64,000 nt of DNA from Oscillospiraceae bacterium (GTDB lineage Bacteria; Bacillota; Clostridia; Oscillospirales; JAAYXM01), in the NCBI GenBank assembly GCA_017435965.1, contig JAFSEA010000046.1, positions 2,974 through 66,973 of the forward strand, given 5' to 3'. The position numbers were made by a program, and so were the translations under genes. The notes below the pieces were generated by a model. That model had not been told where the DNA came from, did not search any database, and was given only the letters and a program-made list of their open reading frames with translations. Positions within the stretch are counted from its first letter, which is position 1. Every line of letters begins with the position of its first letter. Shown here piece by piece: positions 2-29,600 of the stretch.

Positions 2-3000
2 ATACGGGAGGAGAATGCATATGTAAACGGTGCACTTATCGGGAATACATACAATGCAAGAATTTCCGCAAAAAAACTCGGCAACACCGTTTTAAGATTT
101 TCAGCAAAGAAAAACGGAGTTGAGTACACCCGTGATGTGACTGTTTCGGTAGTTGAATATCCGATACTCGACAAGGTAAATCTTACCCTTGCAAAAAGAG
201 CTGTTCCGGCAACAAGAAGGACTTCGGCAAGCTTTGAGCTTTTCCGTGTGGGAGACGGCAAGGAATATACAGAGGATTATACTATTCGCTATGAGAGTAC
301 CAATCCCAAGGTCGCAACGGTTGACGAAAAGACGGGTGAGATAGAAGCGTTGGAAGAGGGCGAAACGGTTATTCGTCTTACCGTTACCGACTACAAAGGA
401 AACGAGGTGTCGGCAGAGCAACCTCTTGCGGTAACGGAAAAACCGGTACTCAATTCTCTTTCCGTAAAAGGCAGTCAGATTCTTCTTCCGGGAGAAACTT
501 CAAAGCTTTCTGTCGAGGCTGTTATGACAGACGGTGTTGTCACATCGGCAGATGCATATGAAATAAGCTTTGAAAGCTCCGATGAAGAAATCATCACAAT
601 AACGGATGACGGCGAGATTACTGTGCAGAAAATCGGCTCTGCTGCAATAATCGTGACAGCGATAAATGAAAAGGGCGAGAAGAAGCTTACAGTATTTCCT
701 GTTGATGTTGTTGCGGAAACTTCGGATATAGTTGTCGATTTCGTGCAGACCGAAGAAGCAGACGGCAGAGGTGTTCCCTCTGTCACTCCGGGATATACAA
801 TACTTACCGAAGAAGGAAATGCAAACTATTTTAGAAAATTTTACTGTGAGGATTCCAAGAAACTCCAGGTTTTCCAAATAGGAACACCTTCAAACGGAAA
901 CAAGCCGTGGCCTGAAAACGGTGATACAAGCGGAACCTTTGCACTTTCGGTAAATGCAGACGGTGCAGGGTATTACAGTATGAGCGTCACCGGCGGCGTA
1001 TGGTATGCAGGAAGTGATTATTCCGTTTTTGTAAACTCTTCCTATGCAGGAGACGTGTCCTTCCATCAAAAGGACGAATCGAATACAAAACTCTTCTCGG
1101 GAGAGGAACAGAAGCTTAATACCGTATACCTCCAAAAGGGTGAAAACAAAATATATTTCCGCTTTAAGAAGAAGTATGAGGGTTCTGCTCCATATCTTGT
1201 TCTCAATAACATAACACTCAAGGCAGTAAAGGGCGATGTCGCCTTTAAAGAGCTTCTTATGAGCGAAATTCCAAAGCAGCTTGCTGTTGGTGAGATATTT
1301 GAGGATACTGTTTCTGTGGGACTTTCAGACGGAAGCGTTCTGTCGTTGGGACCCTCTGCAACCGGCGAAGAGCCCGATGAGAGAAACACAATTTCAGCAA
1401 AGCTTATCGGGGATGCCTGCATTGATATGACAGGCTTTGAATATGAGCTTTGCAAAGCAGACAAAAGAAGCTACAAGCTTGTTGCAAAAAAGCCCGGAGA
1501 GGCAAAGCTTGTTTTCAGTCTTACCATTGACGGAAAAACAGAGAGCTTTGAATATCCGATAACAGTTTTGGAAGATGAGCTTATCGGAGCAGATGCAAGA
1601 TGCGAGGCATCCGAGCTTTATGCAGGCGACTCATCAAAGCTTATTGCAAAAGCTATTTTTAAAAGCGGAAGAGAAAGCGAAAATTCTCAGTCTGCAGTCG
1701 CAGAATTTGAGTCTCTCACCCCTGAAATCGCAACTGTTGCAAACGGAATGCTTGTTACTCATTGTGAGGGCATTGCAAAGATAAAAGTGTCGCTCTCATT
1801 CCATAACGTTGTAACGGGTGAAGGTAAAACTGTCGAAGGTATTGCGGAAATTCCTGTTGAGGCACAGGGTATGTCGGGAATTGAGGCAACTGCCGGAGGC
1901 AGCAAAATTATCCGTCTTACGGAAAAGGGAAGAGAAGATACGGTGCCTCTTTATGCCGAGGCGATAAGCAATCTCGGAGAAAAGATGGATATGACGGGTG
2001 CTGTTGTTTCGGCAAAGGCACTTACCCCCGAATATGCGGAAATAAGCGGTCTTGATATTCTTCCCGTTTCGGAGGGAAATGCACAGTTTGAAGTAACTGT
2101 TACAACCAATGACGGACGCACCAGATCACAGATAATTACGCTTCGTGTTGCATATGGCAAGGACAAGGCGACTTATTATACTGCGGAAAAGGCTTTGGCG
2201 GCGCGCGAAAATGCAGAAAAATACAGTTGGGCAAGGAGCACTATCGAAAGCTATGTCAAGAGAGCCGATGGATATATAGAAAATCTTGATAAAATATACG
2301 ATCTCATCCCATCCGAGGGAATTCCCCGTACTATCACTCTTGGAGAAGCAGATGATCCGTCATCATATAACTGCAAATACTGCAATACCGACCTTATGGT
2401 TGAATACGGATCAATTCCATGGGTTCACAATCCGACAAACCGACCGTGGAAGATACAATGCCCCGATTGTAAGCGAGTATTCCCGACAAATGATTTTGAA
2501 AGCTTTTATAAATTAGGTCTCAATGAATACGGCGAATTTGACCGTATGCGTGCACTTAAAGCTCATAGGGAGCTGTTCGGAGATAAATCAGTAACAGAGC
2601 CCGGAAAAGAAAACAGCGCACAGTGGAAAAAATATTACGGCTACGGGGTGAAGGGCGGATACCTCACCAATGAGCTGTATTCCGATCTTTCCGTTTCAAA
2701 AACAATAAATTGCGGTCAGGGATTGCGAGACGGAGAAACAGAAGCGACCTGGGGTGTTGACGACAGCCTCGGTTATGTTCCGTCGATGAGTGACGGCACT
2801 CCGTATACCGTCAACAGCGGCACAACTATTGCTACCGAACGCCACGGATATATAGCCGAGTATGTTCACTTTGGTCTGTGGCGACGTGAAAGTGAAGGCT
2901 ATGCAGGAGCGCTTATTCGCAATGTGGTTATGGACTCTGCCTATGCGTATTTCTATACGGGAGATATAAAATACGGTCGGGTGGCGGCTGTTCTTCTCGA

Positions 3001-6000
3001 CCGCATAGCAGATTTTTACCCCTATTATGAGGTGAAACCGTGGATCGGAAGATTCCGTCTGAACGACGGCGGTTCAGGCTGCGGCGGTATTATGGGAAAT
3101 ATCGTAGAGTCTCAGGAAATGGTGAGATATATTTCAGCCTACGATATGGTTTACGATGTATATGACGATCCGTTTGTTGTAAACTTCATTGCAAACAAGG
3201 GAAAAACACTTAAATACCGTCATGCAAAGGAAACACCTTCGCAGATTCGCACAAATATAGAGGACGGCATTATAAGAACCGTTCTTCAGGGACTTCGTGA
3301 CCACTCAATCAACGGAAACTTCGGTCTCCCACAGAAAACCAATGCTGTTGCGGCAGTAGTTCTTGACAGTATGCCGGAGACCTCCGAGTGGCTTGATTAC
3401 CTTATGGCGGCAGGCTGGCACCGTGACCCTGCAAAGGAGGTTACGGGCGGAGGTATCAATGAAGTGCTTGTAAATACCATAGATGCAGACGGTCAGGGAA
3501 ATGAAGGCTCGCAGTATAACATTGCATGGCACACAAATCTTCTCTCTGTTCAGGAGGTGCTTGACGCCTATGAAAAAGCCGGAGAAGCAAACCTTTATAC
3601 ACATCCGAAATTTATACAGATGTTCTATTCAAACATTCCGCTTATAGCGACATACTACACTCCGGCAATAGGAGATTCCGGAACTACTCAGGGAAGCGGA
3701 CTGTGGGTACAGCAAAATGTTATGCAGGAGGGCTGGAAAAATATAGGTGATCCGATATTTGCACAGCTTTTATATAAGCTCAACGGAAACTCCGCAAAAG
3801 GGCTTAAGTACGGAATATCCGAAAGAAATCCCGAGCGTCTTGAAGACGAAGTTGAGGCAGTTATAAGAGAATACGGCGAATTTCGACCGAAATCGGAAAT
3901 GATGACAAACTTCGGATTCTCAATCATACGGGACGGTAATGAGTTTGTATCAACCTCGGAAGCAAATTCAAAGGATACACGCCGTGATTTGTGGATGTAT
4001 TTCGGAAACAACACAGGACACGCACATCTTGACACTCTCAATCTCGGAATGAGCGCATTCGGTCTTGAGCTTTTGCCGGACCTCGGATACCCCGAAATGG
4101 CAGACAGAAGTGCAAACCGTCTCCAATGGGTAACGGGAACAATCTCTCACAATACCGTTCAGGTTGATAACCGTGAGCAGTTCCACGGAATTGAAGAACG
4201 TGGAGATTCAAAGCATTTTGACGTGAGCGAAACGGTTTCTCTCATGGATGTTTCAACACCGTATATATACCCGTATTCTGTGGAGGAATATCGCAGAAGC
4301 GTTGTTATGATAAAGGTAAACGATGAGATTTCCTATGCAGTTGACTTCTTCCGTGTTCTCGGCGGCTATGAGCATGTTTACAGCTTCCACGCCGCAAGCA
4401 ACACAATGCCTTTCACAGAAGGTCTCGGAGAGCTTGTTCCGCAGATGAAAAACGGTGAGTATGCAGGAACTCTTGCAGGGATTGACGTGCCCTACGGCGC
4501 AGACCCGGGAACAATTTCGGGAACTCTTGAATATCCCAAGGGTTATACCTGGATTGATACCATTGATTATGCGGAAAATCCCGAAAACAAATTTGAAATT
4601 GACTTTAACATAAAGGATTTCAATAAAAATATCAAAGACTCATCCGGAATCCGTCTGCGCATGACGATGCACAATGAAGAGAATGTTGCAAAGGGTGCCG
4701 ATGTCGATGTAAAGATAGGAAATGGATATCCGCCAAATAAGAAAGAAAACAAAAATATCGACAAGCTCAAGTATGTCATTGTGAAAAATACGGGAAATGC
4801 ACTTGATACCGTGTTCACAACGGTGCTTGAACCTTACAGGAATGAACGTTATCTCACATCAAGTGAAGAGCTTAATATGACGGTTGTTTCCGGAATTGAG
4901 AAAGACGGTGCAGCACACCGTGCACTTAAAGTAACCCACGAAAGCGGCAGGGTGGATTATATTTTCTATGCAACGGACAATTCGGTAACATATAAAATCA
5001 CCGATGAAATTGCAGGAGAGCCCGAAGATATTACTTTCCGTGGATTTATCGGAGTTTACACGGTGAATTCCGAAGGTGTGAACATTTACAGCTATGTACA
5101 CGACGGTGATACAATCGGCAAAGAAACAGACTCTTTGTCTGCCGTGACAGGTGTGCTCAAAAGCGTTACAAAAGAGCTTTCGGTAAATAACGAGCTTGTG
5201 ATTATTCCGCAGGAAGAGCTTTCCGGAGAAATTCTTGCAGACCTTCCGGGACGTTACGTCTTTGTGGATAACGGAGCAGAGGTCAGAAGCGGAGCTTGGA
5301 GAATCGAAGATGCTTATATGCGCGGAGAGGATCTTGTTCTTGATGTAGGAAGAGTTACAGCCATTCGTCAGTATGTGGATATGTATGAGCCTGAAAAGGG
5401 ATATGTTTATACTGTCACACCCGGTCAGTCTGTCCGTATTCCGCTTTCCTACAGCGAAGACTTTGCACCGGTATTTGAGTCCGTAAGTGATTCACTTTCA
5501 GCTTCTGTCGGAAGCTTAGTCTCCTTTACCGTAAATGCTGTAAGCGAGCTTGGGGAAACGGTAATATATTCGGAGGAAACTCTTCCGAGAGGAGCAAGCC
5601 TTGATGTCACAACAGGCAAGATTACATGGACTCCGGGAAGCTCACAGGTTGGAAAGAACCACTTTGCAATAACTGCAAGTGATGAATCGGGAAGAAGTAC
5701 AACAATCCACTTCTACATAACGGTCTACGGTTCAACCTCCGGCGGCGGAAGCGGTGCAACCGCACCCACAACCCCCGATAAGGAAGACACAACCGGCAAG
5801 ACGGAGAAACCCGTAGGGGAGGACGCCCCTGTCCTCCCTCCTGAAGATGCGGAAACCGTCCGCTTCACGGACCTCGCCTCCCACGCCTGGGCGGCAGATG
5901 CAATAAACGCTCTTGCAGATAAAGGAATAGTAAAAGGCACAAGTGCAACAACCTATTCACCGGCAAATAATATAACAAGAGCAGACTTTGCAATACTCCT

Positions 6001-6439
6001 TGTGAGAGCGTTTGAAAAGGAATCGGACAACACCGAAAACTTCGCAGATGTAAGTGAGAGCGACTACTTCGCAGCTGAGCTTGCAATAGCAAGAAACACA
6101 GGACTCGTCGGCGGAATAGGTGATAATAAATTCGCACCGAGAGAAAATATCAAGAGATGCGATATGATGCTTATGGTCTATCGAGTTCTGAATACCATTG
6201 ATGCCTCCCTTGTGCAAAGGGAGGAGGACCGCCATACGGCGGTGGAGGGATTGCCTTCGTCGCAATACGCGGATTTTGAAGATGTTCCCGACTACGCAAA
6301 GGAAGCAGTCTCCGCCCTCATAGGTGCAGGACTTGTAAACGGCAAGAATAACCTCATCGCACCTCTTGATAACACAACTCGTGCAGAAGTCGCAGTACTT
6401 ATTAAAAGAGTATTAGACTATAAATCTTCACTTTCGTGA
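2..6439 (+). CDS. Giant SLH-anchored heparinase II/III-type surface protein, paralog A (5' end outside window)
   Basis: Frame 2 is open from nt 2, with no stop before the GTG at 137 used by the ORF track. The upstream residues (RFSAKKNGVEYTRDVTVSVVEYPILDKV) align with an internal part of paralog B (VKVDGEEYTEVVPVSGMEYPVLERV). Contains Big_2-like Ig repeats, a lyase-type core (HAHLDTLNLG, PDLGYP, SHNTVQVDNREQ), a He_PIG-like domain (TLPRGASLDVTTGKITWTP), a Gly/Pro linker and three SLH repeats (FTDLASHAWAADAINALADKGIVKG...). Confidence 0.85.
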   Translation: MREENAYVNGALIGNTYNARISAKKLGNTVLRFSAKKNGVEYTRDVTVSVVEYPILDKVNLTLAKRAVPATRRTSASFELFRVGDGKEYTEDYTIRYESTNPKVATVDEKTGEIEALEEGETVIRLTVTDYKGNEVSAEQPLAVTEKPVLNSLSVKGSQILLPGETSKLSVEAVMTDGVVTSADAYEISFESSDEEIITITDDGEITVQKIGSAAIIVTAINEKGEKKLTVFPVDVVAETSDIVVDFVQTEEADGRGVPSVTPGYTILTEEGNANYFRKFYCEDSKKLQVFQIGTPSNGNKPWPENGDTSGTFALSVNADGAGYYSMSVTGGVWYAGSDYSVFVNSSYAGDVSFHQKDESNTKLFSGEEQKLNTVYLQKGENKIYFRFKKKYEGSAPYLVLNNITLKAVKGDVAFKELLMSEIPKQLAVGEIFEDTVSVGLSDGSVLSLGPSATGEEPDERNTISAKLIGDACIDMTGFEYELCKADKRSYKLVAKKPGEAKLVFSLTIDGKTESFEYPITVLEDELIGADARCEASELYAGDSSKLIAKAIFKSGRESENSQSAVAEFESLTPEIATVANGMLVTHCEGIAKIKVSLSFHNVVTGEGKTVEGIAEIPVEAQGMSGIEATAGGSKIIRLTEKGREDTVPLYAEAISNLGEKMDMTGAVVSAKALTPEYAEISGLDILPVSEGNAQFEVTVTTNDGRTRSQIITLRVAYGKDKATYYTAEKALAARENAEKYSWARSTIESYVKRADGYIENLDKIYDLIPSEGIPRTITLGEADDPSSYNCKYCNTDLMVEYGSIPWVHNPTNRPWKIQCPDCKRVFPTNDFESFYKLGLNEYGEFDRMRALKAHRELFGDKSVTEPGKENSAQWKKYYGYGVKGGYLTNELYSDLSVSKTINCGQGLRDGETEATWGVDDSLGYVPSMSDGTPYTVNSGTTIATERHGYIAEYVHFGLWRRESEGYAGALIRNVVMDSAYAYFYTGDIKYGRVAAVLLDRIADFYPYYEVKPWIGRFRLNDGGSGCGGIMGNIVESQEMVRYISAYDMVYDVYDDPFVVNFIANKGKTLKYRHAKETPSQIRTNIEDGIIRTVLQGLRDHSINGNFGLPQKTNAVAAVVLDSMPETSEWLDYLMAAGWHRDPAKEVTGGGINEVLVNTIDADGQGNEGSQYNIAWHTNLLSVQEVLDAYEKAGEANLYTHPKFIQMFYSNIPLIATYYTPAIGDSGTTQGSGLWVQQNVMQEGWKNIGDPIFAQLLYKLNGNSAKGLKYGISERNPERLEDEVEAVIREYGEFRPKSEMMTNFGFSIIRDGNEFVSTSEANSKDTRRDLWMYFGNNTGHAHLDTLNLGMSAFGLELLPDLGYPEMADRSANRLQWVTGTISHNTVQVDNREQFHGIEERGDSKHFDVSETVSLMDVSTPYIYPYSVEEYRRSVVMIKVNDEISYAVDFFRVLGGYEHVYSFHAASNTMPFTEGLGELVPQMKNGEYAGTLAGIDVPYGADPGTISGTLEYPKGYTWIDTIDYAENPENKFEIDFNIKDFNKNIKDSSGIRLRMTMHNEENVAKGADVDVKIGNGYPPNKKENKNIDKLKYVIVKNTGNALDTVFTTVLEPYRNERYLTSSEELNMTVVSGIEKDGAAHRALKVTHESGRVDYIFYATDNSVTYKITDEIAGEPEDITFRGFIGVYTVNSEGVNIYSYVHDGDTIGKETDSLSAVTGVLKSVTKELSVNNELVIIPQEELSGEILADLPGRYVFVDNGAEVRSGAWRIEDAYMRGEDLVLDVGRVTAIRQYVDMYEPEKGYVYTVTPGQSVRIPLSYSEDFAPVFESVSDSLSASVGSLVSFTVNAVSELGETVIYSEETLPRGASLDVTTGKITWTPGSSQVGKNHFAITASDESGRSTTIHFYITVYGSTSGGGSGATAPTTPDKEDTTGKTEKPVGEDAPVLPPEDAETVRFTDLASHAWAADAINALADKGIVKGTSATTYSPANNITRADFAILLVRAFEKESDNTENFADVSESDYFAAELAIARNTGLVGGIGDNKFAPRENIKRCDMMLMVYRVLNTIDASLVQREEDRHTAVEGLPSSQYADFEDVPDYAKEAVSALIGAGLVNGKNNLIAPLDNTTRAEVAVLIKRVLDYKSSLS

Positions 6440-6506: not shown

Positions 6507-9500
6507 ATGAAGAAATTATTATCGCTTATATTAACAACAGCGATGCTTATATCGTTTTTACCTACCGTAGCTTTTGCGGAAGATACAAGAGAAGAAGTGA
6601 TTTATTCTTTCCTTGAAGCGGACTATACGGGACTTAAACCCGATGGTATAACATATGCAAACAGCAATAACACATTGCAGTGGGTAGGAACAACCAGCAC
6701 CAACAAGACAAAGTATGGTTGGGAGGCAGGTTATGCCTTCTTTAATATCCCCGTGGGAAAATATGCCGCATATAAAATGAATATCCCGGCAAAGGGTGAG
6801 TATGTTGCACGTCTTGATTATATCTGCCGTGCGGCAGGCTCCGTTGCGGATATGTATATCATACAGGGAACGCCCGATGATATTGATGCGGCAATCGCAT
6901 CGGCAACGCCGGTGTTTGAGAATATAAATTTCCACAGCACCACCGACAAAGAGAAGAAATATACAACGGTAATCTTCAATGCGGAAACGGCAGGAGAATA
7001 CCTTATGGTCTGGGTAGGCAAGGATAACAGCGTATCCTACGCCGTGAGACCTATGAGCCTTAAGCTCACTCCATACACAAAACCCGTGTATGCCGAAACC
7101 GTTCACACAATGACAGATACGGAAATTGTGGGAAGAGACATAACCTTCACCTCACACATTCTTATGTCTGACGGAGAGAGGTTTATCCCGTCGGCGGAAG
7201 GTGACGGAATAAAGGCATTTTCGGAAACCGAGGACACCGTGGAGATAGTCTCCGAAAGCATGACCGACGGAGTTTATACGGTTACCTTTAAAACTTTAAA
7301 AACAGGTGTTGCAAAAATAAAGCTTGTTTCAACCGTTGAGGGAACACCTTACGAATCGGTACATACTCTGAATGTGATTGAACAGCCTCCGCTTTCACCT
7401 GTTGATATTGAAATGACTCAGGACACAATGCGTTTTACGGATAAAACTGCACCGTCGGAAACTTGGGAAACAGACGGCTTTGAGCTTGTTCTTGAGGGAA
7501 ATAAAATGACAACCTCAATTGCAAGATACACTCCCCGTGTGATAAAAGACCCCCAGGGGAAAACAAAGTATTTCGTTCAGCTTGATACGGGCACAAAGAT
7601 ATGGCCCACAGCGGCAAATGCTATGTTCACAATCAGAAAGAGAATATTCACACCGGGCTATTACAACGTGAGTTACAAGGGCGTTATGCTTAAGAATACG
7701 GGTGACTATTCAATATATGTAAACGGCGAGTATGCAGGCGATTTTGTATCTAATGACCCCAACGCAACAGATGCGGCGGCAAATCTCTATACGAAAGAAA
7801 AGAGTCTTAACACTCTCTATCTGCCGGAAGGATATGTTGAAATATCTTTCCGTGCAAGAAAGATATATTCGGGAAGTGCATTTTTCGTTCCTCACACAGT
7901 ATCACTTGTTCCGATTGAGGTGCAGGAGGCTCCGGAAATAAGTAAAGTAGAGCTTGCAATTTCCGAGAAGATTGCGGAGGGTGAGAGCGAGGACATAACC
8001 GCCCGTGTCCTTATGTCTGACGGCACTTACCGCCATTTCGGACTTGATAACGAGGGAAAAGCCGATGATGACAACAAGGTCATTGAGGTTATCTCCGACA
8101 ACCCCGAGATAATTGATATTTCCGAGGTTTCCTTTATGAACATCGGAACATCTGATGAAATAAAGTTTAAGGCAGAAGCAAAAGGAGTCGGAAATACAAA
8201 TATAAGAATAAAAGTCAAAGTAGACGGAGAGGAATATACGGAGGTCGTCCCCGTCTCCGGTATGGAATATCCCGTCCTTGAGCGTGTTGATGTGGCACTT
8301 GAAAGAAAAAACATCCCGGCAACAAGAAAGACAGAAGCAAGCATCACTCTCACGAGAAGCGAGGACGGAAAGCCCTATACGGATGAATATTCTGTGAGAT
8401 ACGAAAGCTCCGATACAGATATCGCAACAGTTGACGAGGAAACAGGTGAAATTACGGGACAAAATCCCGGAAGGGCAACAATTTATGCCTATGTAACCGA
8501 TTGGGCAGGCAACACAGTTACAGGAAGTGCAGAAATTGTAATTGCGGCAAAGCCTGTTCTCAATGAGATAAAAGCATCCGTTGACACTCAGCTTGTCACG
8601 GGACAGAGCAAGAAGATAACGGTGACGGGACAGATGGACGACGGAATCCCTGCAGATATGGAGGATTACGTCTGCGCCTTTGAAAGCACGGATGACAGTG
8701 TTGTATCGGTTTCCGAAGACGGCACGGTCACGGCTGTGGGCGAGGGTGAAGCGGCAATCTCCGTGACTGCAAAGAATGAGCTTTCAAAGAATTGCTCCCA
8801 TGTAATAATAATTTCCGTAAGCGATGATAAATGGGCTTTTGAAGTTGATTTTTCAAAGACTCAGACGGATGAGTCCAACCGAGGAGTGCTTCACGGAACA
8901 CCGGGATATACGATAATTGAGCGTGAGGACACAACCAATTATTATCGAATCTTCACATTCCCCGATACAAAGCAGAATGTGCTCCAGATTTTCACTCAGG
9001 CAAAGGACAAGCGTATGTGGCCTGAAACCTCCGACCCTAAGGGAGCTACCTTTGCATTCAATGTAGATGTTTCAGATGAAGGATTCTACGGTCTTGAGCT
9101 TTTCGGAGGGCTTTGGGAAGGCTCACCCACGTACTCTCTCTTTGTTGATGAAAATTATGTCGGCGACCACAGCTTCCACGAGGTGGGCGCTGTTCAGAAA
9201 ACCGACAGCGGAAAACAGCTCAACACGGTATATCTCTCCGAGGGAACACATTCCATCCGCTTCCGCCTCAGGAAGAAGGATAAGGACCTTCCCTATATGT
9301 ATGTGAGAAAGCTTGTTTTCTCACCACGTGAGGATGCAGGCTTTGAAAAAATTGAGGTAGAGCTTCCAAACGAGCTTGCCATAGGCGAAAGCGTAAGCGG
9401 AACGGCAAGGGTCAAAATGCGTGACGGAAGTATCCGTCATTTCGGACCTGATTTTGAAGGAAACGCAACAGATGAAGAGAATAAATTCACCCTTGATGTT

Positions 9501-12500
9501 TCAAATGACAGCGTTGAGGCTTCCGGCTTTGAATATCAGCTCGGAAACAGCGCAGAGCGTGACTTCACCATTACCGCAGTAAAGGAAGGAACGGTTGAGG
9601 TTACCTTTACCGCAACAATAGACGGAGTTTCCTATCCCTTAACCTTTGATATTGAGGTAAAGGATGACCCCCTTGTATCAACAGGTGTTGATACCGAGGC
9701 AACTGAGCTTCTTGCAGGTGATGCAACATACATTTTTGCAACACCGAAGCTTTCCTCGGGAAGAATTCTCGGTGCATCCTGCGCCACCTCAACCTTTGAG
9801 TCCCTTGATACGGACGTGGCAACCATTGAGGGCGATTTGCTCAGAACTCACAAACCCGGCATTGCAAGAATTAAGACGGTAACAACCTTCAACGGTGTCC
9901 AAGTAGAGGGAATATCTGAAATAGAAGTTCTGGAGGAAGGTCTTTCGGATATTGTTGTAACAGCAGGCGGAAGTGAGTATATCCGCCTCACGGACGAGGG
10001 CGACACCGTTCCCGTCTATGTTGCGGCATATGACAATCTCGGCAGGGAGATAGATGCCGAAAACTGTGAGATTTCAGCAATTTCTCTCACTCCGGAATAT
10101 GCTACACTTGATAGTGACAACAACATCATTCCCGTAAGCGAGGGTGAGGCAAAGTTTGATGTCACCGTTAAGGTTGACGGACGAATTCGTGAAAAAGAGG
10201 TCACACTCACGGTGGTTTACGGAAAGGCGAAATCCACCTACTACACACCGGAAAAGATTGAAGCGGTGCGTGAAAATTATAAAAAGTATTCCTGGGTAAA
10301 ATCAGAAGGAAATGCATATATAAAGAATGCGGATATATATGTGGATAAGCTCGATGAAATATACGACCTTATCCCGTCCGAGGGACTTCCCCGTGCCATA
10401 TGCATAGGAAATTCAAACGATCCACTTGCATACACCTGCCGTTACTGTAATACCAACGTAATGGAAAAATACGGACAGTTTTCTTGGAAACACAATGCAC
10501 TGAACGATCCGTGGAAAATTCAGTGTCCCGAGTGCAAACGCCGATTCCCGTCAAACGACTTCGGCTCATTCTATAAGCTCGGTCTTGATGAATATGGTGA
10601 GTTTTCTCGTGATCGTGCACTTAATGAGCACGCAAAGCTCTTTGGTGACCTCAATGCCGAGGTTGGCTCTGATGCCTACTACGGCTACGGCAAGGGATAT
10701 CTTGAAAACACTCTCTATAAGGATGTTGCAAGTGAACCTCGCTTAAACGGCGGTGTGGGACTTCGCCCCGGCGAAACTGTTGCCACTTGGGGAGTTGATG
10801 ACGGCTGGGGCTATGTTCCGAAGGATGAAAACGGAAAGCCTTATGAAAATGACGGAAATATTGAACGCCATACCTATATTGCGGAATATATCCATTTGGG
10901 ACTCTGGCGACGTCAGGACAGCTCCGATGCAAACGGCGGTCTCATTCAGCGTGCTATCGGTCAATGTGCCCGTGCATATCTCTATACCGGTGATATAAAG
11001 TATGGAAAAGTAGCGGCTGTACTTCTTGACAGAATAGCAGACTTCTATCCTGATTATGATATCGCTCTGTGGTCAGATTTCGCTGTTAATACCGACGGTG
11101 GACTCAACATAGGAAAGACCATGGGTTGTATCTGGGAGTGTGAAGAGGTTGTAAAGCGCGCAGAGGTCTATGATATAGTCTTTGATGCATACGACGACCC
11201 GTCTGTTATCAGCTACATAAATAATAAAGCACAGAATATCAAGATGCGCCACGCAAAGAATACTGCGGCGCAGATACGAACAAATATTGAGGACGGATTC
11301 CTCCGCACAGCACTTAGTGGACTCGTTGACTGTTCGGTTTCCGGCAACTTCGGACTTCCTCAGGAGGCAAACGCAATCGCCGCAGTTGTTCTTGACACAA
11401 TGCCCGAGACTGCAAAGTGGCTTGATTATCTTATGGCTCCCGGCTGGATTCGCTCAAACACATCACCGTGTCTCGGCGGCGGAGTGAGTGAAGTTCTTGT
11501 AAATACCATAGATGCAGACGGTCAGGGCGATGAAGCATCACAGTATAACATCAACTGGCATACTGCCCTTGCGGATATCCAGAATATCCTCGATAACTAC
11601 GACAGATACGACAAGGTAAATCTCTATAACAATCCCAAGTTCGTACAGATGTTCTATTCAAACATTTCCCTTATGTCAACGTATTACAGTCCGCAGATAG
11701 GCGATACGGGAACAACACAGGGCAAAGGACATTGGATAACGAAGAACACAGCTGTTGAAGGCTGGAGAAAGCTCCGCGATCCGCTTTTTGCTCAGGTTGT
11801 ATATAAGCTCAACGGAAATACCGTGGATGGACTTCGCTATTCTTCCTATGAGAAGGATCCGGAGAGACTTGCCGATGAGATACAGGAGGTCATTGATACC
11901 TACGGCCCTCTTGATCTCAAGTCGGAAATGATGACAAACTTCGGTTTTGGTATTCTTCGTGCAGGCGGAGATTATACATACGCAAACAGCGATACCGCAA
12001 AGGAAACAAGCCGCAATATATGGATGTATTTCGGAAAGAATACCGACCACGGTCACGTTGATACATTAAACCTCGGAATGACGGCATTCGGACTTGACTT
12101 TATGCCGGATCTCGGATATCCTGCTCTTACGGGAACAGACCACGAGCGTTACCAATGGACAAGAACAACACTTTCCCATAACAGCGTGGTAGTAAACAAA
12201 AAAGAGCAGACGGAAACAGGAGAAATCCGAGGCAAAATCAAGCACTTTGATGATGCGGGATTTGCGAAGCTTATGGATGTTTCGGCAGACTATTCATATG
12301 AAAGCACGGAGCAGTACCGCAGAAGCGTTATGATGATTGAGGTTGACGATGAAAACGCATATACGGTTGACTTCTTCCGTGTTCTCGGCGGTAACAGCCA
12401 CTTATATAGTTTCCACGCAACGAGTAACGAAATCAGCGGAACAGAAGGCTTGAATCTCACGCCTCAGACAGATGAAAACGGTAATTACATCGGAACGTAT

Positions 12501-14393
12501 GCAGGAGCTGATGTTCCATTCGGACCTGATGCGGCAGGTACTCACGTTGAATCACAGCTTGAAAATCCAATAGGATTTACATGGCTTAAAAACGTAGACC
12601 GGGATGCAGAGCCATCCGATGTATTTGAAGTAAACTTTAAGATTAAGGACTTCAATAAGCAGATTAAGGATGCAAACGGTCTCTATCTGCACATGACTGT
12701 CCACAATGAGGGCAATTCGGAAAAAGGCTCAAAGACAAACGTTGCAATTGCCGAGGGTCTTCCGCCTCAGGCATCAAAGAACAAAAATGTAGATAAGCTC
12801 AAATATCTCCTTATCGAAAACGAAGGAGAGAATCTTGATACTGTTTTCACAACGGTATTTGAACCCTACAGAAACAACCGATATCTCAAATCAAGCGAAG
12901 AGCTCTCACCGGTTATTGTCGGCGGAGTTGAAAACAGCGGTGATGCAAAGCGTGTCATTAAAGTAACTCACGAAAGCGGAAGATGCGATTATATTTTCTG
13001 GGCAACAAACAACACCGTGACATATAAGCTCACCGATGGGGATGTAGAAATTCTCTTCCGTGGCTTTATGGGTGTGTATACACTCAATAGTGACGGAGAG
13101 AACATATACAGATACGTCCACGACGGTGACATTATCGGAGAAGAGACGGATACAAAGGTTGCGGTTGAAGGCGTTATAAAGCGGTTTACCAAGGAGCTTT
13201 CAGAGAACAACAAAATCACAATAATTCCCACAGAGACTGTGACGGATGAAGAGCTTTCGTCTCTTGCCGGAAGGTATGTATTTATTGACAACGGTGCATC
13301 CGTGAGAAGCGGAACGTATGCAATAAAAGGTGCAGAGCGAAGCGGTGAGGATATTGTTCTTGATGTGGGAAGAATTACCGCGATAAGAAGATATAAGGAC
13401 TCAAACGACCTTGAAAAGGGATATGACTATATGATTTCCGAAGGTCAGTCAGTCCGCATACCCCTTTCAATGAGCGATGATTTCGCACCTGAATTTGAAG
13501 CTGTGAGTGATTCACTTTCCGCATCTGCAGGAAGCTCTGTCTCTCTCAGAGTTCGAGCAGAAAGCGAGCTTTCTGAGACTGTGACATATCTTGCGACAAC
13601 TCTTCCGAGAGGAGCAAGCCTTGACAGCGAAACGGGAGCGATTACCTGGACACCGGATAGTTCTCAGGTTGGAAAGAACCACTTTGCAATAACTGCAAGT
13701 GATGAATCGGGAAGAAGTACAACAGTCCACTTCTACATAACGGTCTACGGTTCAACCTCCGGCGGCGGAGGCGGTGGAGCAACAGCCCCCTCTGATAAAC
13801 CCTCAACCGATGTAGGGGAGGATATCATCCTCCCGCCCGCAGAGCCAGATGTCCGATTCACCGACCTCGGAAACCACGCCTGGGCGGAGGATGCAATCAA
13901 TTCTCTCGCCGATAAGGGAATCATAAAGGGAACAAGCGAAACCACATATTCCCCGGCAAACAATATAACAAGAGCAGACTTTGCGATACTCCTTGTAAGA
14001 GCATTTAAAAAGGAATCGGATAACACCGAAAACTTTGACGATGTAAATGAGTCCGACTACTTCGCACGTGAACTTGCGGTCGCCCGAAACACAGGACTCG
14101 TCGGCGGCGTTGGTGACAACAAATTCGCACCAAGAGATAATATCAAGCGTTGCGATATGATGCTTATGGTATATCGAGTAATTAAGGACAAATTTGTAGG
14201 GGCGGATATCATCCTCCCGGAATACGAAGATTTCGACTCCGTCCCCGACTACGCAAAAGAAGCAGTCTCAGCCCTAATCGGCGCAGGACTCGTAAACGGT
14301 AAAAACAACAAAATCGCACCCAACGACAACACAACAAGAGCAGAAGTAGCGGTTCTCTTGCAGAGAGTCCTCGAATTTGTAGCAGAAAAATAA
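6507..14393 (+). CDS. Giant SLH-anchored heparinase II/III-type surface protein, paralog B (2628 aa)
   Basis: RBS AAGGAGA 7 nt upstream; signal peptide MKKLLSLILTTAMLISFLPTVAFA. Contains several Big_2-like domains and three unassigned beta-sandwich-like modules. Core carries CRYC...CPEC, HGHVDTLNLG, PDLGYP and SHNSVVVNKKEQ. Ends with a He_PIG-like domain, a poly-Gly linker and three SLH repeats. Confidence 0.9.
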   Translation: MKKLLSLILTTAMLISFLPTVAFAEDTREEVIYSFLEADYTGLKPDGITYANSNNTLQWVGTTSTNKTKYGWEAGYAFFNIPVGKYAAYKMNIPAKGEYVARLDYICRAAGSVADMYIIQGTPDDIDAAIASATPVFENINFHSTTDKEKKYTTVIFNAETAGEYLMVWVGKDNSVSYAVRPMSLKLTPYTKPVYAETVHTMTDTEIVGRDITFTSHILMSDGERFIPSAEGDGIKAFSETEDTVEIVSESMTDGVYTVTFKTLKTGVAKIKLVSTVEGTPYESVHTLNVIEQPPLSPVDIEMTQDTMRFTDKTAPSETWETDGFELVLEGNKMTTSIARYTPRVIKDPQGKTKYFVQLDTGTKIWPTAANAMFTIRKRIFTPGYYNVSYKGVMLKNTGDYSIYVNGEYAGDFVSNDPNATDAAANLYTKEKSLNTLYLPEGYVEISFRARKIYSGSAFFVPHTVSLVPIEVQEAPEISKVELAISEKIAEGESEDITARVLMSDGTYRHFGLDNEGKADDDNKVIEVISDNPEIIDISEVSFMNIGTSDEIKFKAEAKGVGNTNIRIKVKVDGEEYTEVVPVSGMEYPVLERVDVALERKNIPATRKTEASITLTRSEDGKPYTDEYSVRYESSDTDIATVDEETGEITGQNPGRATIYAYVTDWAGNTVTGSAEIVIAAKPVLNEIKASVDTQLVTGQSKKITVTGQMDDGIPADMEDYVCAFESTDDSVVSVSEDGTVTAVGEGEAAISVTAKNELSKNCSHVIIISVSDDKWAFEVDFSKTQTDESNRGVLHGTPGYTIIEREDTTNYYRIFTFPDTKQNVLQIFTQAKDKRMWPETSDPKGATFAFNVDVSDEGFYGLELFGGLWEGSPTYSLFVDENYVGDHSFHEVGAVQKTDSGKQLNTVYLSEGTHSIRFRLRKKDKDLPYMYVRKLVFSPREDAGFEKIEVELPNELAIGESVSGTARVKMRDGSIRHFGPDFEGNATDEENKFTLDVSNDSVEASGFEYQLGNSAERDFTITAVKEGTVEVTFTATIDGVSYPLTFDIEVKDDPLVSTGVDTEATELLAGDATYIFATPKLSSGRILGASCATSTFESLDTDVATIEGDLLRTHKPGIARIKTVTTFNGVQVEGISEIEVLEEGLSDIVVTAGGSEYIRLTDEGDTVPVYVAAYDNLGREIDAENCEISAISLTPEYATLDSDNNIIPVSEGEAKFDVTVKVDGRIREKEVTLTVVYGKAKSTYYTPEKIEAVRENYKKYSWVKSEGNAYIKNADIYVDKLDEIYDLIPSEGLPRAICIGNSNDPLAYTCRYCNTNVMEKYGQFSWKHNALNDPWKIQCPECKRRFPSNDFGSFYKLGLDEYGEFSRDRALNEHAKLFGDLNAEVGSDAYYGYGKGYLENTLYKDVASEPRLNGGVGLRPGETVATWGVDDGWGYVPKDENGKPYENDGNIERHTYIAEYIHLGLWRRQDSSDANGGLIQRAIGQCARAYLYTGDIKYGKVAAVLLDRIADFYPDYDIALWSDFAVNTDGGLNIGKTMGCIWECEEVVKRAEVYDIVFDAYDDPSVISYINNKAQNIKMRHAKNTAAQIRTNIEDGFLRTALSGLVDCSVSGNFGLPQEANAIAAVVLDTMPETAKWLDYLMAPGWIRSNTSPCLGGGVSEVLVNTIDADGQGDEASQYNINWHTALADIQNILDNYDRYDKVNLYNNPKFVQMFYSNISLMSTYYSPQIGDTGTTQGKGHWITKNTAVEGWRKLRDPLFAQVVYKLNGNTVDGLRYSSYEKDPERLADEIQEVIDTYGPLDLKSEMMTNFGFGILRAGGDYTYANSDTAKETSRNIWMYFGKNTDHGHVDTLNLGMTAFGLDFMPDLGYPALTGTDHERYQWTRTTLSHNSVVVNKKEQTETGEIRGKIKHFDDAGFAKLMDVSADYSYESTEQYRRSVMMIEVDDENAYTVDFFRVLGGNSHLYSFHATSNEISGTEGLNLTPQTDENGNYIGTYAGADVPFGPDAAGTHVESQLENPIGFTWLKNVDRDAEPSDVFEVNFKIKDFNKQIKDANGLYLHMTVHNEGNSEKGSKTNVAIAEGLPPQASKNKNVDKLKYLLIENEGENLDTVFTTVFEPYRNNRYLKSSEELSPVIVGGVENSGDAKRVIKVTHESGRCDYIFWATNNTVTYKLTDGDVEILFRGFMGVYTLNSDGENIYRYVHDGDIIGEETDTKVAVEGVIKRFTKELSENNKITIIPTETVTDEELSSLAGRYVFIDNGASVRSGTYAIKGAERSGEDIVLDVGRITAIRRYKDSNDLEKGYDYMISEGQSVRIPLSMSDDFAPEFEAVSDSLSASAGSSVSLRVRAESELSETVTYLATTLPRGASLDSETGAITWTPDSSQVGKNHFAITASDESGRSTTVHFYITVYGSTSGGGGGGATAPSDKPSTDVGEDIILPPAEPDVRFTDLGNHAWAEDAINSLADKGIIKGTSETTYSPANNITRADFAILLVRAFKKESDNTENFDDVNESDYFARELAVARNTGLVGGVGDNKFAPRDNIKRCDMMLMVYRVIKDKFVGADIILPEYEDFDSVPDYAKEAVSALIGAGLVNGKNNKIAPNDNTTRAEVAVLLQRVLEFVAEK

Positions 14394-14409: not shown

Positions 14410-14433
14410 GGGAACGACCTATGTGTCGTTCCC
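14410..14433 (+). terminator. Stem-loop after paralog B (GGGAACGAC / GTCGTTCCC)
   Basis: Perfect 9-bp stem with a 6-nt loop, 17 nt after the stop. No U-tract, so the terminator role is uncertain. Confidence 0.3.
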
Positions 14434-14473
14434 TCTCGATTTACGAAAAAATCAACATACAGGAGGGAAAACG

Positions 14474-16033
14474 ATGAGAAAATTCATAGCATTTCTTCTT
14501 GCTTCCGTTATGATACTCGCACTTTGTGCCTGTGGAAAAAATACGGAAATGGATAAAGCCGCAGACCATTCCGGCGCAGACAAGACATTTACCGAAAAAA
14601 CAGTTCTCAAATATCTTGTGCCCTCACACGCAAGCTGGCCTGTACGTGAAGACTGGAAGGTATTTGAGTATATGCAGGAGGGCTCGGGCGCAACTCTCGA
14701 CATTATGGTAGTTCCCATGGGAGATGTTGCAACAAAGCTTCCTCTTATGATATCCGATCCAAAGGAGATGCCCGATCTTCTTGCAGGAGACAATAACAAG
14801 AGTTACAACCAATATTGGGGCGAGGGCATTGCGGCTCTTGACGATTTTGCCGAGTATATGCCAAACTACAATGCGTGGCTTGATTCCCTCTCAGATGATG
14901 AATACTATGTTGCGGTAACAAATCGCAAGGCTGCAGACGGCAAGATCTATTACACACCGGGAACGGGACGTGAGGGCAGAACTCGTATGCGTGCATGGCT
15001 TTATCGCGAAGATATCTTCAAAAAGCACAACCTCAAAGTTCCCGAAACCTTCGACGAGCTTTATAAGGTATGTAAGAAGCTTAAGACCATATATCCCGAT
15101 TCATACCCCTTCAGCACAAGAAGTATCTCATATCTCTTCGATATTTTAGGCTCATCCTTCGATAAATGGTGGGAACACGGTCTCTACTATGATTTCGATG
15201 ACGGCGAATGGCGCTGGGGAGCAACCGAAGACACGGCAAAAGAAGTTCTGGAGTTCTATAAGAGGATGGTAAAGGAAGGTCTTATGCCTGCCGATGCCAT
15301 TTCCCTTGAAGTAACGAAATGGAATGAGTATGTTCTCACAGACCGCACCTTTATTATGCCGCATCTCCAGCTCTATATCGACTACTTCAACAGCCGTGCA
15401 CAGGAAAACAATCCCGAGTTCAAGATTGTCGCCATGAAGCCCCCCGTTGCAAACGAGGATACGGGTGTACCCTTGATGGATCGCGGAGACATTGAGCAGA
15501 TTGGTACAGTTATCGGCGATACGGGCGATCAGGAACGAATGATAAATGCCGCAAAGTTTATCGACTGGATGTATACAGACGAAGCTGTTGAGCTTGTTTC
15601 CTGGGGTAAGGAAGGCGAAACCTTTGAATGGGTCGATAAGGAAAAAGGCGAGAGAAGATATATCACAAATGAAAACAACGACCAGGCGAACACGATGTAT
15701 GGCTTCCAGCTCTACGGAACGTTTATAAAGCTTGACCCCACAGCCGCAAAGGCACTTCAGTCCGAAACAACTCTCGAGTGTGAGGATATAGTTATTGATA
15801 GTGCGCTTCCCTATCACAACCCGGGAATGTGGGTGGCTTTGAATGAAGAGGAGCAGGCGGTCATTGACGAAAAATACACAGCTGTATTAAATTATACAGA
15901 GGAAATGATGACAAAGTTCATGCTTGATCAGGAGCCTATGAGCAAGTATGACAGCTTTGTGAAGGAACTCAAGAAAATGGGTGTTGACGAAATCCTTGAG
16001 GCCTACACATCGGCATACGACAGAGTAAAGTAA
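14474..16033 (+). CDS. Extracellular solute-binding lipoprotein (ABC-type carbohydrate SBP, family 1-like)
   Basis: ATG at 14474 is preceded by AGGAGGG. Lipoprotein signal MRKFIAFLLASVMILALCAC (lipobox LALC). The ~520-aa size and composition are typical of LplA/YtcQ-like sugar SBPs. The ORF-track start at 14423 lacks an RBS. Confidence 0.75.
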   Translation: MRKFIAFLLASVMILALCACGKNTEMDKAADHSGADKTFTEKTVLKYLVPSHASWPVREDWKVFEYMQEGSGATLDIMVVPMGDVATKLPLMISDPKEMPDLLAGDNNKSYNQYWGEGIAALDDFAEYMPNYNAWLDSLSDDEYYVAVTNRKAADGKIYYTPGTGREGRTRMRAWLYREDIFKKHNLKVPETFDELYKVCKKLKTIYPDSYPFSTRSISYLFDILGSSFDKWWEHGLYYDFDDGEWRWGATEDTAKEVLEFYKRMVKEGLMPADAISLEVTKWNEYVLTDRTFIMPHLQLYIDYFNSRAQENNPEFKIVAMKPPVANEDTGVPLMDRGDIEQIGTVIGDTGDQERMINAAKFIDWMYTDEAVELVSWGKEGETFEWVDKEKGERRYITNENNDQANTMYGFQLYGTFIKLDPTAAKALQSETTLECEDIVIDSALPYHNPGMWVALNEEEQAVIDEKYTAVLNYTEEMMTKFMLDQEPMSKYDSFVKELKKMGVDEILEAYTSAYDRVK

Positions 16034-16064
16034 ATAAGTAAAAATTTCATCACGACTATTGAAA

Positions 16065-16109
16065 AGCAGTAGTGAACGACAATCAGTCGTTCACTACTGC
16101 TCATTTTTT
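16065..16109. terminator. Bidirectional rho-independent terminator
   Basis: Perfect 16-bp stem AGCAGTAGTGAACGAC / GTCGTTCACTACTGCT with a 5-nt loop, followed by a T-run on + and flanked by an A-run. Lies between convergent genes and overlaps the stop of the AraC gene. Confidence 0.75.
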
Positions 16110-26600: not shown

Positions 26601-29600
26601 ACCCTCAATGGCGGTGGGGAGCGTGAGCTTGCCACAATTTCCTTTGACATTCCCGAAATTATGGTAAAGGGCGATGGCGGACTTATCGCACCCATAGGAA
26701 CAATGAGTGACGGTACTGCCTTCTCCGTAAAAGACGGATATATTTTCTCAAGCGATAACGAAGATGTGCTTTATGTAAACCGTGAAACGGGAGAATATAC
26801 TGCAAGTGGTGCAGGTGTTGCAACGGTTACCGTTTCTTATGATATCGGAAGAATGATAACCTCCGAGAAAAAGGTTGAGGTTATTGAAGGCGCGGCGGCA
26901 GGCAAGCTGTTTATCTATGATTTTGCAGAAGCAATCCCCGAATATGGAACAGATAAGGCATTTTCCGAGCTTTCAAGCGATGATGCGAGCGGTGCATATC
27001 AATTTGCATCGGCAAGTCAGAGTGGAGTGGGTACTCAGATTCAATACAGAGACACATTCATAAATCTTGGAAAAGGTGAATGGTTCGCCTTTGAAATTGA
27101 CATCCCCGTATCGGGAATATATTCGATAAATCAGAGATATGGCAAATACAACAACTCAACGGGTGCTCTTGAAGCATACATTATTCCGAAAAACGGAAAC
27201 TTTGATATCAGCACCATCAATAACCTTGATGCAACCGGCACACAGAGCTGTTTTGACGGTGATGCATCCGAATATTCGGAAAGTGCAACAGTTTCCGACT
27301 TCGGAGTAGATTTCTTCGAGGCTGGCAAATACTATGTTGTTTACAAGGCTAAATATGGTAGAGCAATGTTTGGAAATCTCATACTTGACGGAAGAAACAC
27401 ATTCAAGAAGCTCATTGTATCTGCTCCGAAGAGTATAGGCGTTGGTGAGCGTGTTGAAATAGGCATAGAGGCAAAGTCTCTTGATATGACAACAATCGAC
27501 ATAGAAACCCTCAATTTGAAGAGTCTTTCATCTGTTCAATTTGCCCTTACAACAGAAATCGGTGACAACAACGAATGTTTTGTCTATGGTGAAAATGAGG
27601 GTGCTTCCGAGATTACAATCACGGCAGATGACGGTGAATTCTCCGATTCAAAGACAGTTGAGATTAAAGTAATTGACTCAAGTGAAGTTCAAAATGTCGA
27701 AATTGATATTTCCGATTATATCTATGTGAGAGCTTCCGAAAACATCAAATTTATCGCTCATATGGGAAGCGGAAAGACTATAGAAATACCGGATGAGACC
27801 TATGAAATCATAGCATCGGAGCCTGAAGGTGCAGGTGTGGTTTCGGGAAATTCCATTACCGGAAATGCAGAAGGAAAGATAACTTTAAAGGCAAGTGCAG
27901 ATTTCAAGGGTGAAATGAGAACTGCCGAAAAGGAAATAGACATTCTTGAGGGAATGTCAAAGCAGGCTCCCACATACTACACCTATGAGATGCGCGAAAA
28001 CGTTAAAAAGAATACCGAAAAGTATTCCTGGGTACGAAGTGAAGTAAATGCGAAAAAAGCAGATGCCGACATCGCTTTAGAGAACCTTGACGCATATTAC
28101 GATATGATAATCGGTGAGGGAATTCCGAGATCAAGAAGTATGAAGACGAAAGGTCATCCCGAAATTGATAATTGTCCTTACTGCGGAGAATATTATCAAT
28201 TTGCGTGGAAATATGATTTTCTCAATCGTCCGTGGAAGGCTCAGTGCCCGGGTTGCAAACGTTTCTTCCCTTCAAATGATTTTGAAAGCTTTATGAAGCT
28301 GGGACTTGATGAACAGAAATATTACGATGTTGACAGAGCAAGACAAGCACATCACGAGATGCTTTTTCACAAGGGCGGAGAAGAATGTACCTGTGAGAAA
28401 CCCGAAACGCCCTATTCCGAAGAGTGGTATGAGTTCTACGGATATGGAAATGAGGAAGGATATCTCTACAACAAGCTTTATAAAGAAGTCGGAAGCGAAA
28501 ATTCAAGTGTGGAGCTCCTTCCCAGCGAAAAGGCCGAGCGCTGGTGCGTTGATGACGGCTTCGGATACTACACAGGAAGAGTTTTCAATACAGGCGTAAA
28601 GGAAATGTATTGCCCGATAGCATTATATAACTATTCTTTGTTACCGGGAATTTCAAACAGAATAAGCTCCCTCGGAATGGCTTATGTATACACGGGAGAG
28701 ACAAAATACGGCGTTGCGGCGGCAATACTTTTAGACCGACTGGCAGACGTTTACCCGAGCCATGATGCCGATTCCTTTGACACCGGTGCATTCCAGATAA
28801 CAGATGGAGGAACGGGAAAAGGAAAAATACAGGGTCTTATTCAGGATGCATATTTCGCAAAGGGCTTTGCTCTGCGTATCGATGAGGTGTTCCCCATCCT
28901 CAAGGATGAGGCCGCCTGCAATCAGGTTATTCAGTATCTGAGCCCGAAAGCAGATGCAATGGGTCTTGAAAATAAGAAGAAAACCGCAGAGGATATATGG
29001 AGAAACTGGGAAGAGAATATTCTTCTTGAGAATTTTGAGGCGGCAAAGCTTTATAAGGTCGGAGGTAACTTCGGCACATACCAGGCTGCCATTGCGGCAA
29101 CTGCGCTTGTTCTTGACAAGAAGCCCGAATCCGATGAGATGATGGATTGGTGCTTCAGAAGCGGTGGAGTTGTTTATCCCCAGAACAGCGAAACGGGAAC
29201 CTACTACAACACAGGTGGAAACATCAATGCCCAGATTGTTGATGAAGTTGACCGTGACGGTCTGGGAACAGAATCCTCCGCAAGCTACAACTGTATGTGG
29301 TGGGAAAAGCTTATAAATATTGCAGAAATGTCTGCAAAATACGGTGATCCGAAATATGATCTTTATCAGAATGTAAAGTTCCTCAAAATGCTGGAGGCAT
29401 TTTCCGATCTCGTAATGACAAACTCCCACACAGTTCATATCGGTGACTGTTCTTCGGGTATCGCATCAGCTACACTCCTCGGAAATGTAAAGCTTCTCTC
29501 CACGATATTCCCGTATGTAAAATACACACCTATGGCTGAAAAGATTGCAAAGTATATAGCATTATATTACAACTACAATCTTGACGGCTTCAGAGAAAGT

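Follow-up and report, generated by a model that had tools for sequence, protein, structure and literature searches.

The window analyzed here is a 64,000-nucleotide stretch of DNA from an Oscillospiraceae bacterium (GenBank assembly GCA_017435965.1, contig JAFSEA010000046.1, positions 2,974 to 66,973 of the forward strand). It encodes three large paralogous proteins, A, B, and C, each with a predicted polysaccharide lyase core that carries four cysteines in two CxxC pairs, the Cys4 module. These cysteines probably form one structural metal site of the zinc-ribbon type (a paired zinc-knuckle, rubredoxin-like), with Zn2+ as the most likely metal. We infer both the identity of the metal and the convergence of the four sulfurs.

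Position and sequence of the Cys4 module

The modules of the three proteins, and the conserved block around the second knuckle, are located as follows.

2372..2470, + strand: Cys4 module of A, CKYC...CPDC, CKYCNTDLMVEYGSIPWVHNPTNRPWKIQCPDC
10437..10535, + strand: Cys4 module of B, CRYC...CPEC, CRYCNTNVMEKYGQFSWKHNALNDPWKIQCPEC; protein residues 1311-1343
28173..28256, + strand: Cys4 module of C, CPYC...CPGC, CPYCGEYYQFAWKYDFLNRPWKAQCPGC; the inter-knuckle loop is five residues shorter
10512..10562, + strand: second-knuckle block of B, WKIQCPECKRRFPSNDF, with flanking invariant W, K, P, N, D, and F
2447-2497 and 28233-28283, + strand: equivalents of the second-knuckle block in A and C, respectively

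An earlier, sequence-only reading of the window had placed CxxC pairs in all three paralogs at these intervals, and translation of the intervals agrees. Its figure of 25-29 amino acids between the pairs holds for A and B, where the gap between the inner cysteines is 25, but not for C, where it is 20; the family range is ~20-29. In core numbering, the cysteines of the B module are C87, C90, C116, and C119. The knuckle consensus is CRYCG for the first pair and CP.CK for the second.

Cysteine is scarce in A, B, and C (12-20 per 2145-2842 residues). Only one other CxxC is present in the three proteins, in the signal peptide of C. From composition, a CxxC-x15-45-CxxC pattern is expected 0.65-2.2e-4 times per protein. 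With ~1e-4 double knuckles expected per protein, the Cys4 motif is not a product of chance.

Conservation across the family

The four cysteines are found in 54/54 family open reading frames (ORFs) in a motif scan of this 2.65-Mb genome. CxxC...CxxC is also present in 119 of the 120 closest database homologues (40-86% identity), and the exception has a CxxxxC first knuckle. How widespread the insert might be was a question left by the sequence-only reading; the Cys4 module is family-wide, present in ~220 of 338 homologous cores from public data. It is a hallmark of the family and not peculiar to A, B, and C.

Several individual homologues have features of their own. A CxxxxC first knuckle (CRYPDC, CPHPDC) occurs in a minority of sequences, namely P0071, P0149, P0170, P0174, P0186, and P0207, as well as on contig C70 of this genome. 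P0011, a protein of 4066 residues from a Joint Genome Institute metagenome, has two full lyase cores, each with a Cys4 module (residues 1521 and 2758), plus leucine-rich-repeat domains. Far outside Bacillota, locus L032 of a Candidatus Latescibacterota metagenome-assembled genome (MAG) encodes a core that is 28% identical and has an intact module. The Latescibacterota occurrence means either that the family is old or that it was transferred between phyla.

In an alignment of 33 cores (A2, 32-58% identity), the four cysteines are invariant together with W112, K113, P124, N126, D127, and F128. The second-knuckle block WKIQCPECKRRFPSNDF is the top 17-residue window of the whole 1106-residue core, with a mean column conservation of 0.897, and outranks the catalytic motifs. 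The sequence-only reading had named the block WK.QCP.CKR.FP[ST]NDF as the most conserved stretch between C and A/B. It ranks first in the 33-sequence alignment and joint first when B is compared with C. Of the 45 invariant columns, 14 fall within the insert, which makes up 17% of the core length.

Conservation of this degree raises the possibility that the cysteines act directly in catalysis or substrate binding, e.g., by holding a catalytic metal that touches uronate. A block that is more conserved than the recognized catalytic motifs, in an insert so rich in invariant residues, would fit such a role. However, the 115 of 338 cores that lack the cysteines keep the catalytic His, Tyr, Asp, and Asn as well as the WK/NDF residues. 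The cysteines are thus dispensable for the function of the family. Moreover, the related families PL39 and PL40 place the catalytic metal at the His-x-His of the beta domain (PMC12915356). A catalytic role of the cysteines is very improbable, and it was rejected because the large Cys-free clade retains the catalytic set.

The Cys-free sister clade

The number of cysteines in the module is close to all or none. Among the 338 cores, 220 have at least four, 115 have none, one has three, and two have a single cysteine. Many of the Cys-free forms are Paenibacillus and Cohnella proteins with the annotation "heparinase II/III family". They keep the module (YGNYPW.ADP.N.PWKI ... KFPTNDF) with the cysteines absent, and W-K and F-P-x-N-D-F are retained even in these relatives. 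The replacements are polar: the first knuckle reads SPV[ST]G and the second DP.SG. Members of the clade also retain the catalytic His, Tyr, Asp, and Asn.

In a maximum-likelihood tree, the Cys4 form is ancestral. A Cys4 pair is nested within the Cys-free Paenibacillaceae clade, with supports of 0.95-0.999 at the enclosing nodes. To explain this nesting, all four cysteines must have been lost independently at least four times, unless they were regained, which is unlikely. Because the cysteines are kept or lost together, with intermediates in only 3 of 338 cores, they behave as one functional unit. The two forms also differ in their hosts. Cys-free proteins belong to aerobic or facultative soil Paenibacillus and Cohnella, and Cys4 proteins belong to anaerobes, in gut MAGs of Oscillospiraceae.

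Predicted structure of the core and the insertion domain

The lyase cores and the insertion domains that carry the module have the following positions.

10179..13496, + strand: core of B, 1106 residues; helical toroid, beta-sandwich, and extra C-terminal beta domain
2114-5446 and 27915-31271, + strand: equivalent cores of A and C, respectively
10371..10928, + strand: insertion domain of B, ~185 residues in the N-terminal helical toroid (core residues 65-250)
~2291-2902 and ~28092-28643, + strand: equivalent insertion domains of A and C, respectively

The three cores are 42-58% identical to one another. An AlphaFold2 model of the B core, built from the 33-sequence alignment, has a predicted local distance difference test (pLDDT) score of 89.5 and a predicted template modeling score (pTM) of 0.87. 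The best Foldseek match of this model is the PL17 enzyme Alg17c (E 2.5e-26, target template modeling score 0.70). PL40, PL39, PL12, PL15, PL21, PL35, and PL33 are also matched; E-values across all eight families, PL17 included, run from 1e-26 to 1e-12. Compared with these solved members, the model has the two-domain fold of the heparinase II/III-like superfamily.

Besides the Cys4 module, the insertion domain contains another invariant motif, WGVDDG.GY. On one side, core residues 24-64 (the first three helices) align weakly to the N-terminus of Uly1040. On the other, the AYxYTGDxKY helix pair (core ~255-292) aligns with residues 61-105 of AlgL17, and the next toroid helices extend the alignment to 61-144. 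Since the flanking helices align to Uly1040 and AlgL17 and the stretch between them is unmatched, core residues 65-250 are read as an insertion. Foldseek alignments to PL17 cover ~770-805 columns of the 1106-residue core, which is close to the length of the core minus the insert and the extra C-terminal beta domain.

When folded separately (10356-10928), the insert is predicted to be a compact domain with a pLDDT of 92.5 and a pTM of 0.88. This model has no significant Foldseek match in the PDB (best E 3.9) or among the BFVD viral models (best E 1.0). Structures of PL17, PL40, PL39, PL12, PL15, PL21, PL33, and PL35 are all found with the whole core, and none of them with the separate insert. 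The term "insert" is apt because the lyases matched by the whole core are missing from the match lists of the insert. By these searches, no solved lyase of this fold has an equivalent of it. According to the sequence-only reading, paired CxxC knuckles are not known as a feature of characterized heparinase or alginate lyase folds, and no solved structure of the same eight families has a counterpart of the module. Free-standing homologues of the insert were not found; of seven short matches, most lie on short contigs and are probably gene fragments.

The Cys4 region of B is modeled with a pLDDT of 82-96. In both the core model and the separate insert model, secondary-structure assignment with DSSP shows each CxxC flanked by strand residues (86/93 for the first, 114-115/122-123 for the second) and another strand between the knuckles at 104-105. 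By sequence and DSSP, two CxxC knuckles are located at beta-hairpin turns, and the predicted strand layout is that of a zinc ribbon. Below threshold, Pfam matches the module only to zinc fingers and zinc ribbons, including DZR (16-17 bits) and Zn_ribbon_3 (12-14 bits) against cut-offs of ~27. The first knuckle of C alone has a marginal match to zf-Tbcl_FmdE (23.6 versus 23.2 bits). The short sub-threshold Foldseek matches of the insert are likewise mostly small zinc-ribbon or CxxC proteins.

Membership in a curated zinc-ribbon family of Pfam was not found, and rubredoxin (PF00301) is absent from the Pfam match lists even at E up to 10. The paired knuckles had been described as a rubredoxin/zinc-ribbon signature. 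That description is supported by the sequence and the predicted secondary structure but not by membership in a Pfam zinc-ribbon family or PF00301.

A probable structural metal site

In the favored reading, Zn2+ would be acquired outside of the cell after Sec export. Given this export route, Zn2+ is the likely metal and Fe2+ a possible one in anoxic gut contents. The N-termini of B and C are Sec-type signal peptides without a twin arginine, and a pre-assembled Fe-S cluster was rejected on these grounds. Each CxxC would sit at the tip of a beta-hairpin, and the metal would tie both hairpins together. This bracing would fix the strand that bears the invariant Trp-Lys and Phe-Pro-x-Asn-Asp-Phe. 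The Cys4 module is the conserved heart of the ~185-residue insertion, which separates the third helix of the toroid from those after it. The enzyme itself belongs to an uncharacterized PL17/PL39/PL40-like lyase family and retains a His-x-His, Asp, Tyr, Asn catalytic set. Because the W-K and F-P-x-N-D-F residues are conserved with or without the cysteines, the conserved function probably lies in them and in WGVDDG.GY, with the metal holding the hairpin. The WK/NDF residues may contact the substrate or the catalytic cleft, and the module might, as the sequence-only reading proposed, gate or stabilize the entrance to the active site.

The sequence-only reading had allowed either a structural Zn or Fe site or two disulfides. 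As disulfides, the four cysteines would staple the hairpins of the insert outside of the cell with no metal involved. A signal peptide and SLH repeats mark the proteins as exported and wall-anchored, and proteins outside of the cell are usually stapled by disulfides. Joint loss of the four cysteines would also suit two coupled disulfides. However, CxxC at hairpin tips is the geometry of a metal knuckle, and the two cysteines of a CxxC pair rarely bond each other in structural disulfides. DsbB, VKOR, Thioredoxin_4, and DsbA (DSBA) were not found in this genome, in searches with positive controls, nor were BdbD-like genes, and these hosts live in the gut as strict anaerobes. Such machinery is generally present in the aerobic Paenibacillaceae, which would gain most from disulfides yet dropped all four cysteines. 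In addition, the replacements are Ser, Thr, and Asp and not the hydrophobic pairs that are usual for buried cystines. The all-or-none loss, the polar replacements, the lack of Dsb and VKOR, and the aerobic Cys-free forms favor the metal side of the original pair of options over disulfides, which are unlikely.

A metal site could also serve as a switch. A rubredoxin-type iron centre or a labile Zn-thiolate might be sensitive to redox state or oxygen. On oxidation, the metal would be lost, the insert would unfold, and the enzyme would stop working. Anoxic gut contents can supply Fe2+, and the knuckle sequence and spacing resemble the rubredoxin pattern (CxxCG ... W.CPxC). Repeated loss of all four cysteines in aerobic lineages, with the fold kept, is expected if a thiolate site is harmful in air. 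However, a site with only a structural role could equally well have been lost to avoid oxidative damage. Even at E up to 10, Pfam gives no rubredoxin match. A wall-anchored lyase has no evident redox partner or path for electrons, and lyase chemistry does not require any. A redox switch is accordingly a doubtful explanation with little probability.

A variant of the structural site places the emphasis on anoxia. Here the Cys4 module would be an oxygen-labile metal-thiolate clasp, and the insert with its WK/NDF residues a specificity element whose shape is held only under anoxic conditions. This proposal is speculative and has a small chance of being correct. If true, it would tie lyase activity to the anaerobic gut lumen and explain the repeated swap of the four cysteines for a hydrogen-bonded Ser/Thr/Asp set in aerobic Paenibacillaceae. 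It would also define a new polysaccharide lyase family, with a metal-braced substrate-recognition domain as its hallmark.

Some points count against a structural zinc site. The genome is 88% complete, so the absence of Dsb genes is not proof, and non-enzymatic disulfides are possible. Fe2+ is abundant in anoxic gut fluid and can use the same set of ligands, which bears on the choice between Zn and Fe. The zinc-ribbon resemblances in Pfam and Foldseek are all below significance, and AlphaFold places no metals. Lastly, one large clade supplies most of the evidence that links Cys-free forms to aerobic hosts.

The catalytic core and its putative active site

The putative catalytic residues of B are located in the core as listed here.

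11346-11348, + strand: N390, putative catalytic residue, from spacing
11544-11546, + strand: Y456, putative catalytic residue, from spacing
11703-11705, + strand: D509, putative catalytic residue, from spacing
12048..12062, + strand: HGHVD motif, with H624 as putative catalytic base and H626 as putative ligand of the catalytic metal

In a hidden Markov model (HMM) alignment, H624 and H626 align with His485 and His487 of the PL40 ulvan lyase Uly1040. In that enzyme, His485 is the catalytic base and His487 a ligand of Mn2+, and they act with Asp358, Tyr305, and Asn245 (PMC12915356). The 33-sequence alignment shows no variation at N390, Y456, or H624 and at least 90% conservation at D509. The distance from N390 to Y456 is 66 residues versus 60 in Uly1040, and the distance from Y456 to D509 is 53 in both. 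From this spacing and weak alignments, N390, Y456, and D509 would correspond to Asn245, Tyr305, and Asp358. Judged by the fold matches, the conserved His/Tyr/Asp/Asn set, and the similar spacings, the core looks to be of the PL17/39/40 type, either as an active lyase or as a related His/Tyr enzyme.

Sequence kinship to known lyases is confined to one part of the core. Hepar_II_III_C (PF07940, gathering cut-off 24) scores 40.4 bits in B, 38.2 in A, and 22.7 in C, which is just under the cut-off. The ~600 residues that precede this domain have no Pfam match. A direct sequence search with phmmer of the 1106-residue core against all PDB chains returned no lyase and only chance matches (AcvB, Rubisco activase), and NCBIfam gave nothing meaningful. 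A profile of the 33 sequences searched against the PDB matches PL17 (2.9e-14), PL40 (6.9e-11), and PL39 (6e-05), in the beta domain only. The structures matched are 9irq, 7bjt, and 4ojz of PL17, Uly1040 (9vtk) of PL40, 6jp4 of PL39, 5jmd of PL12, and 3a0o of PL15. These PDB searches found no significant sequence similarity over the whole module to a characterized member of PL17, PL39, or PL40. The core lies too far from these three CAZy families to be assigned to one of them.

Three newer Pfam families, PF26374, PF26918, and PF26182, appear in the precomputed domain lists of homologues and are outside the Pfam release that was scanned. PF26374 is listed for core-only Paenibacillus proteins of 1007 residues and may cover part of the core.

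The gellan lyase of Bacillus (Paenibacillus) sp. GL1, an enzyme made as a giant precursor, was also considered as a tentative identity of the family. Gellan lyase is absent from the source names in the homologue tables, and the gellan lyase papers that were opened concern PL33.

The three genes and their surroundings

The genes are taken from the ORF listing of the window. A further feature, a second His/Cys cluster, is present in C and missing from A and B.

2..6439, + strand: gene A, open at its 5' end and truncated by the window
6507..14393, + strand: gene B, 2628 residues
23637..32165, + strand: gene C
28350..28394, + strand: second His/Cys cluster, HHEMLFHKGGEECTC, in a sub-insertion of C

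Gene B encodes, in order, a Sec signal peptide, CBM-like and Ig-like modules, the core, a He_PIG domain, a Gly-rich linker, and three SLH repeats. Pfam identifies Big_2 and other Ig-like domains, He_PIG, three C-terminal SLH domains, and a weak Hepar_II_III_C in A, B, and C. The signal peptides and SLH repeats point to a surface location and wall anchoring, and all three are predicted to be wall-anchored surface enzymes.

The second cluster follows the pattern HH.x.F[VF][CH]..G..C.[CH], which is found in 19 of the 57 motif-bearing frames of the genome and is visible in alignment A3. Elsewhere in the genome it reads HHE.FVCE..G..C.[CH], in a variable sub-insertion ~30-45 residues past the Cys4 module. 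From its residues, it may be a second metal site.

The regions between and after the lyase genes (14423-23564 and 32192-35847) encode an ABC solute-binding protein, two AraC regulators, and a GFO/IDH/MocA oxidoreductase. They further encode a GNAT-like protein, an 872-residue protein with an Ig-like domain, an alpha/beta hydrolase, a xylose-isomerase-like TIM barrel, and an amidohydrolase. Together with these neighbors, the lyases look like a Gram-positive glycan-utilization locus, as far as gene content indicates.

Family size and significance

A search of representative sequences at E 1e-3 or better returned 1887 clusters, of which 679 reached 1e-30 or better. In this genome (2.65 Mb, 88% complete), a profile search has 60 matches, two of them in one ORF, which gives ~59 cores. 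Nearly all family cores are in open frames of 2000-3300 residues. The 54 frames of the motif scan, measured from stop to stop, make up 15.9% of the assembled bases. Among 61 related genomes, the family is present in 29 of 32 from the window's own family and in none of 29 other families of the same order. Within a single genus, copy number spans 0 to at least 54 (up to 82 candidates), with higher numbers in larger genomes. Genomes of ~1.4-1.6 Mb have 0-2 copies, and genomes of 2.7-3.2 Mb have at least 54. Expansion of the family may account for much of the difference in genome size.

The Cys4 insert is new among solved or described lyases, yet it embellishes the structure of a fold that is already known, and a zinc site with a structural role brings no conceptual surprise by itself. 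If the metal site is real, a large uncharacterized branch of heparinase II/III-like enzymes has a diagnostic, metal-braced insertion domain that is absent from solved polysaccharide lyases, and Cys4 is a simple sequence marker for this lyase family. It would also guide expression, which should include a supply of Zn and reducing conditions or use the natural Cys-free versions from Paenibacillus. Production of active protein is the first step toward finding substrates. The ecological weight of the family lies in single gut Oscillospiraceae genomes that carry at least 54 copies, ~16% of the DNA.

Comparison with known systems

Literature on zinc ribbons in polysaccharide lyases, SLH heparinases of Oscillospiraceae, and FIMAH heparinases of Paenibacillus was searched, and nothing relevant was found. 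The best structural match is to the PL17 oligo-alginate lyases, such as Alg17c of Saccharophagus degradans (4nei/4ojz/4ok2) and AlgL17 (9irq). Both groups share a helical toroid and an antiparallel beta-sandwich, and the H-x-H-x-D and SHNTV motifs of the PL17 beta domain align with the window family. Sequence kinship is visible by profile only, in the C-terminal half only (E 2.9e-14). PL17 has no counterpart of the 185-residue insert or the Cys4 module. Two further parts set the window proteins apart from PL17: an additional C-terminal beta domain, and CBM-like, Ig-like, and SLH modules that amount to ~1200-1500 residues.

The PL40 ulvan lyase Uly1040 (9vtk) and the PL39 alginate lyase Dp0100 (6jp4) have the same fold and apparently the same catalytic logic. 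Their identity to the window core is ~14-17% by Foldseek. The paper on Uly1040 contains no description of a zinc ribbon and no mention of cysteine (PMC12915356).

Zinc-ribbon and rubredoxin knuckles (DZR, Zn_ribbon_3, the TFIIB ribbon, and the FmdE treble clef) likewise have two CxxC knuckles at hairpin tips, 20-29 residues apart. In zinc ribbons and in the Cys4 module alike, the second knuckle is CPxC and the first is followed by Gly. Zinc ribbons are mostly found in the cytoplasm and bind nucleic acid or protein, whereas the Cys4 module is part of a larger domain in a secreted enzyme.

Ribosomal proteins L31, L33, L36, and S14 exist in Cys and Cys-free zinc-ribbon forms. The four ligands are kept or lost, the fold is retained, and the form correlates with lifestyle. 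These proteins are unrelated to the lyases, and the comparison is by analogy only: the two lyase forms are found in different lineages and not as alternative paralogs in one genome.

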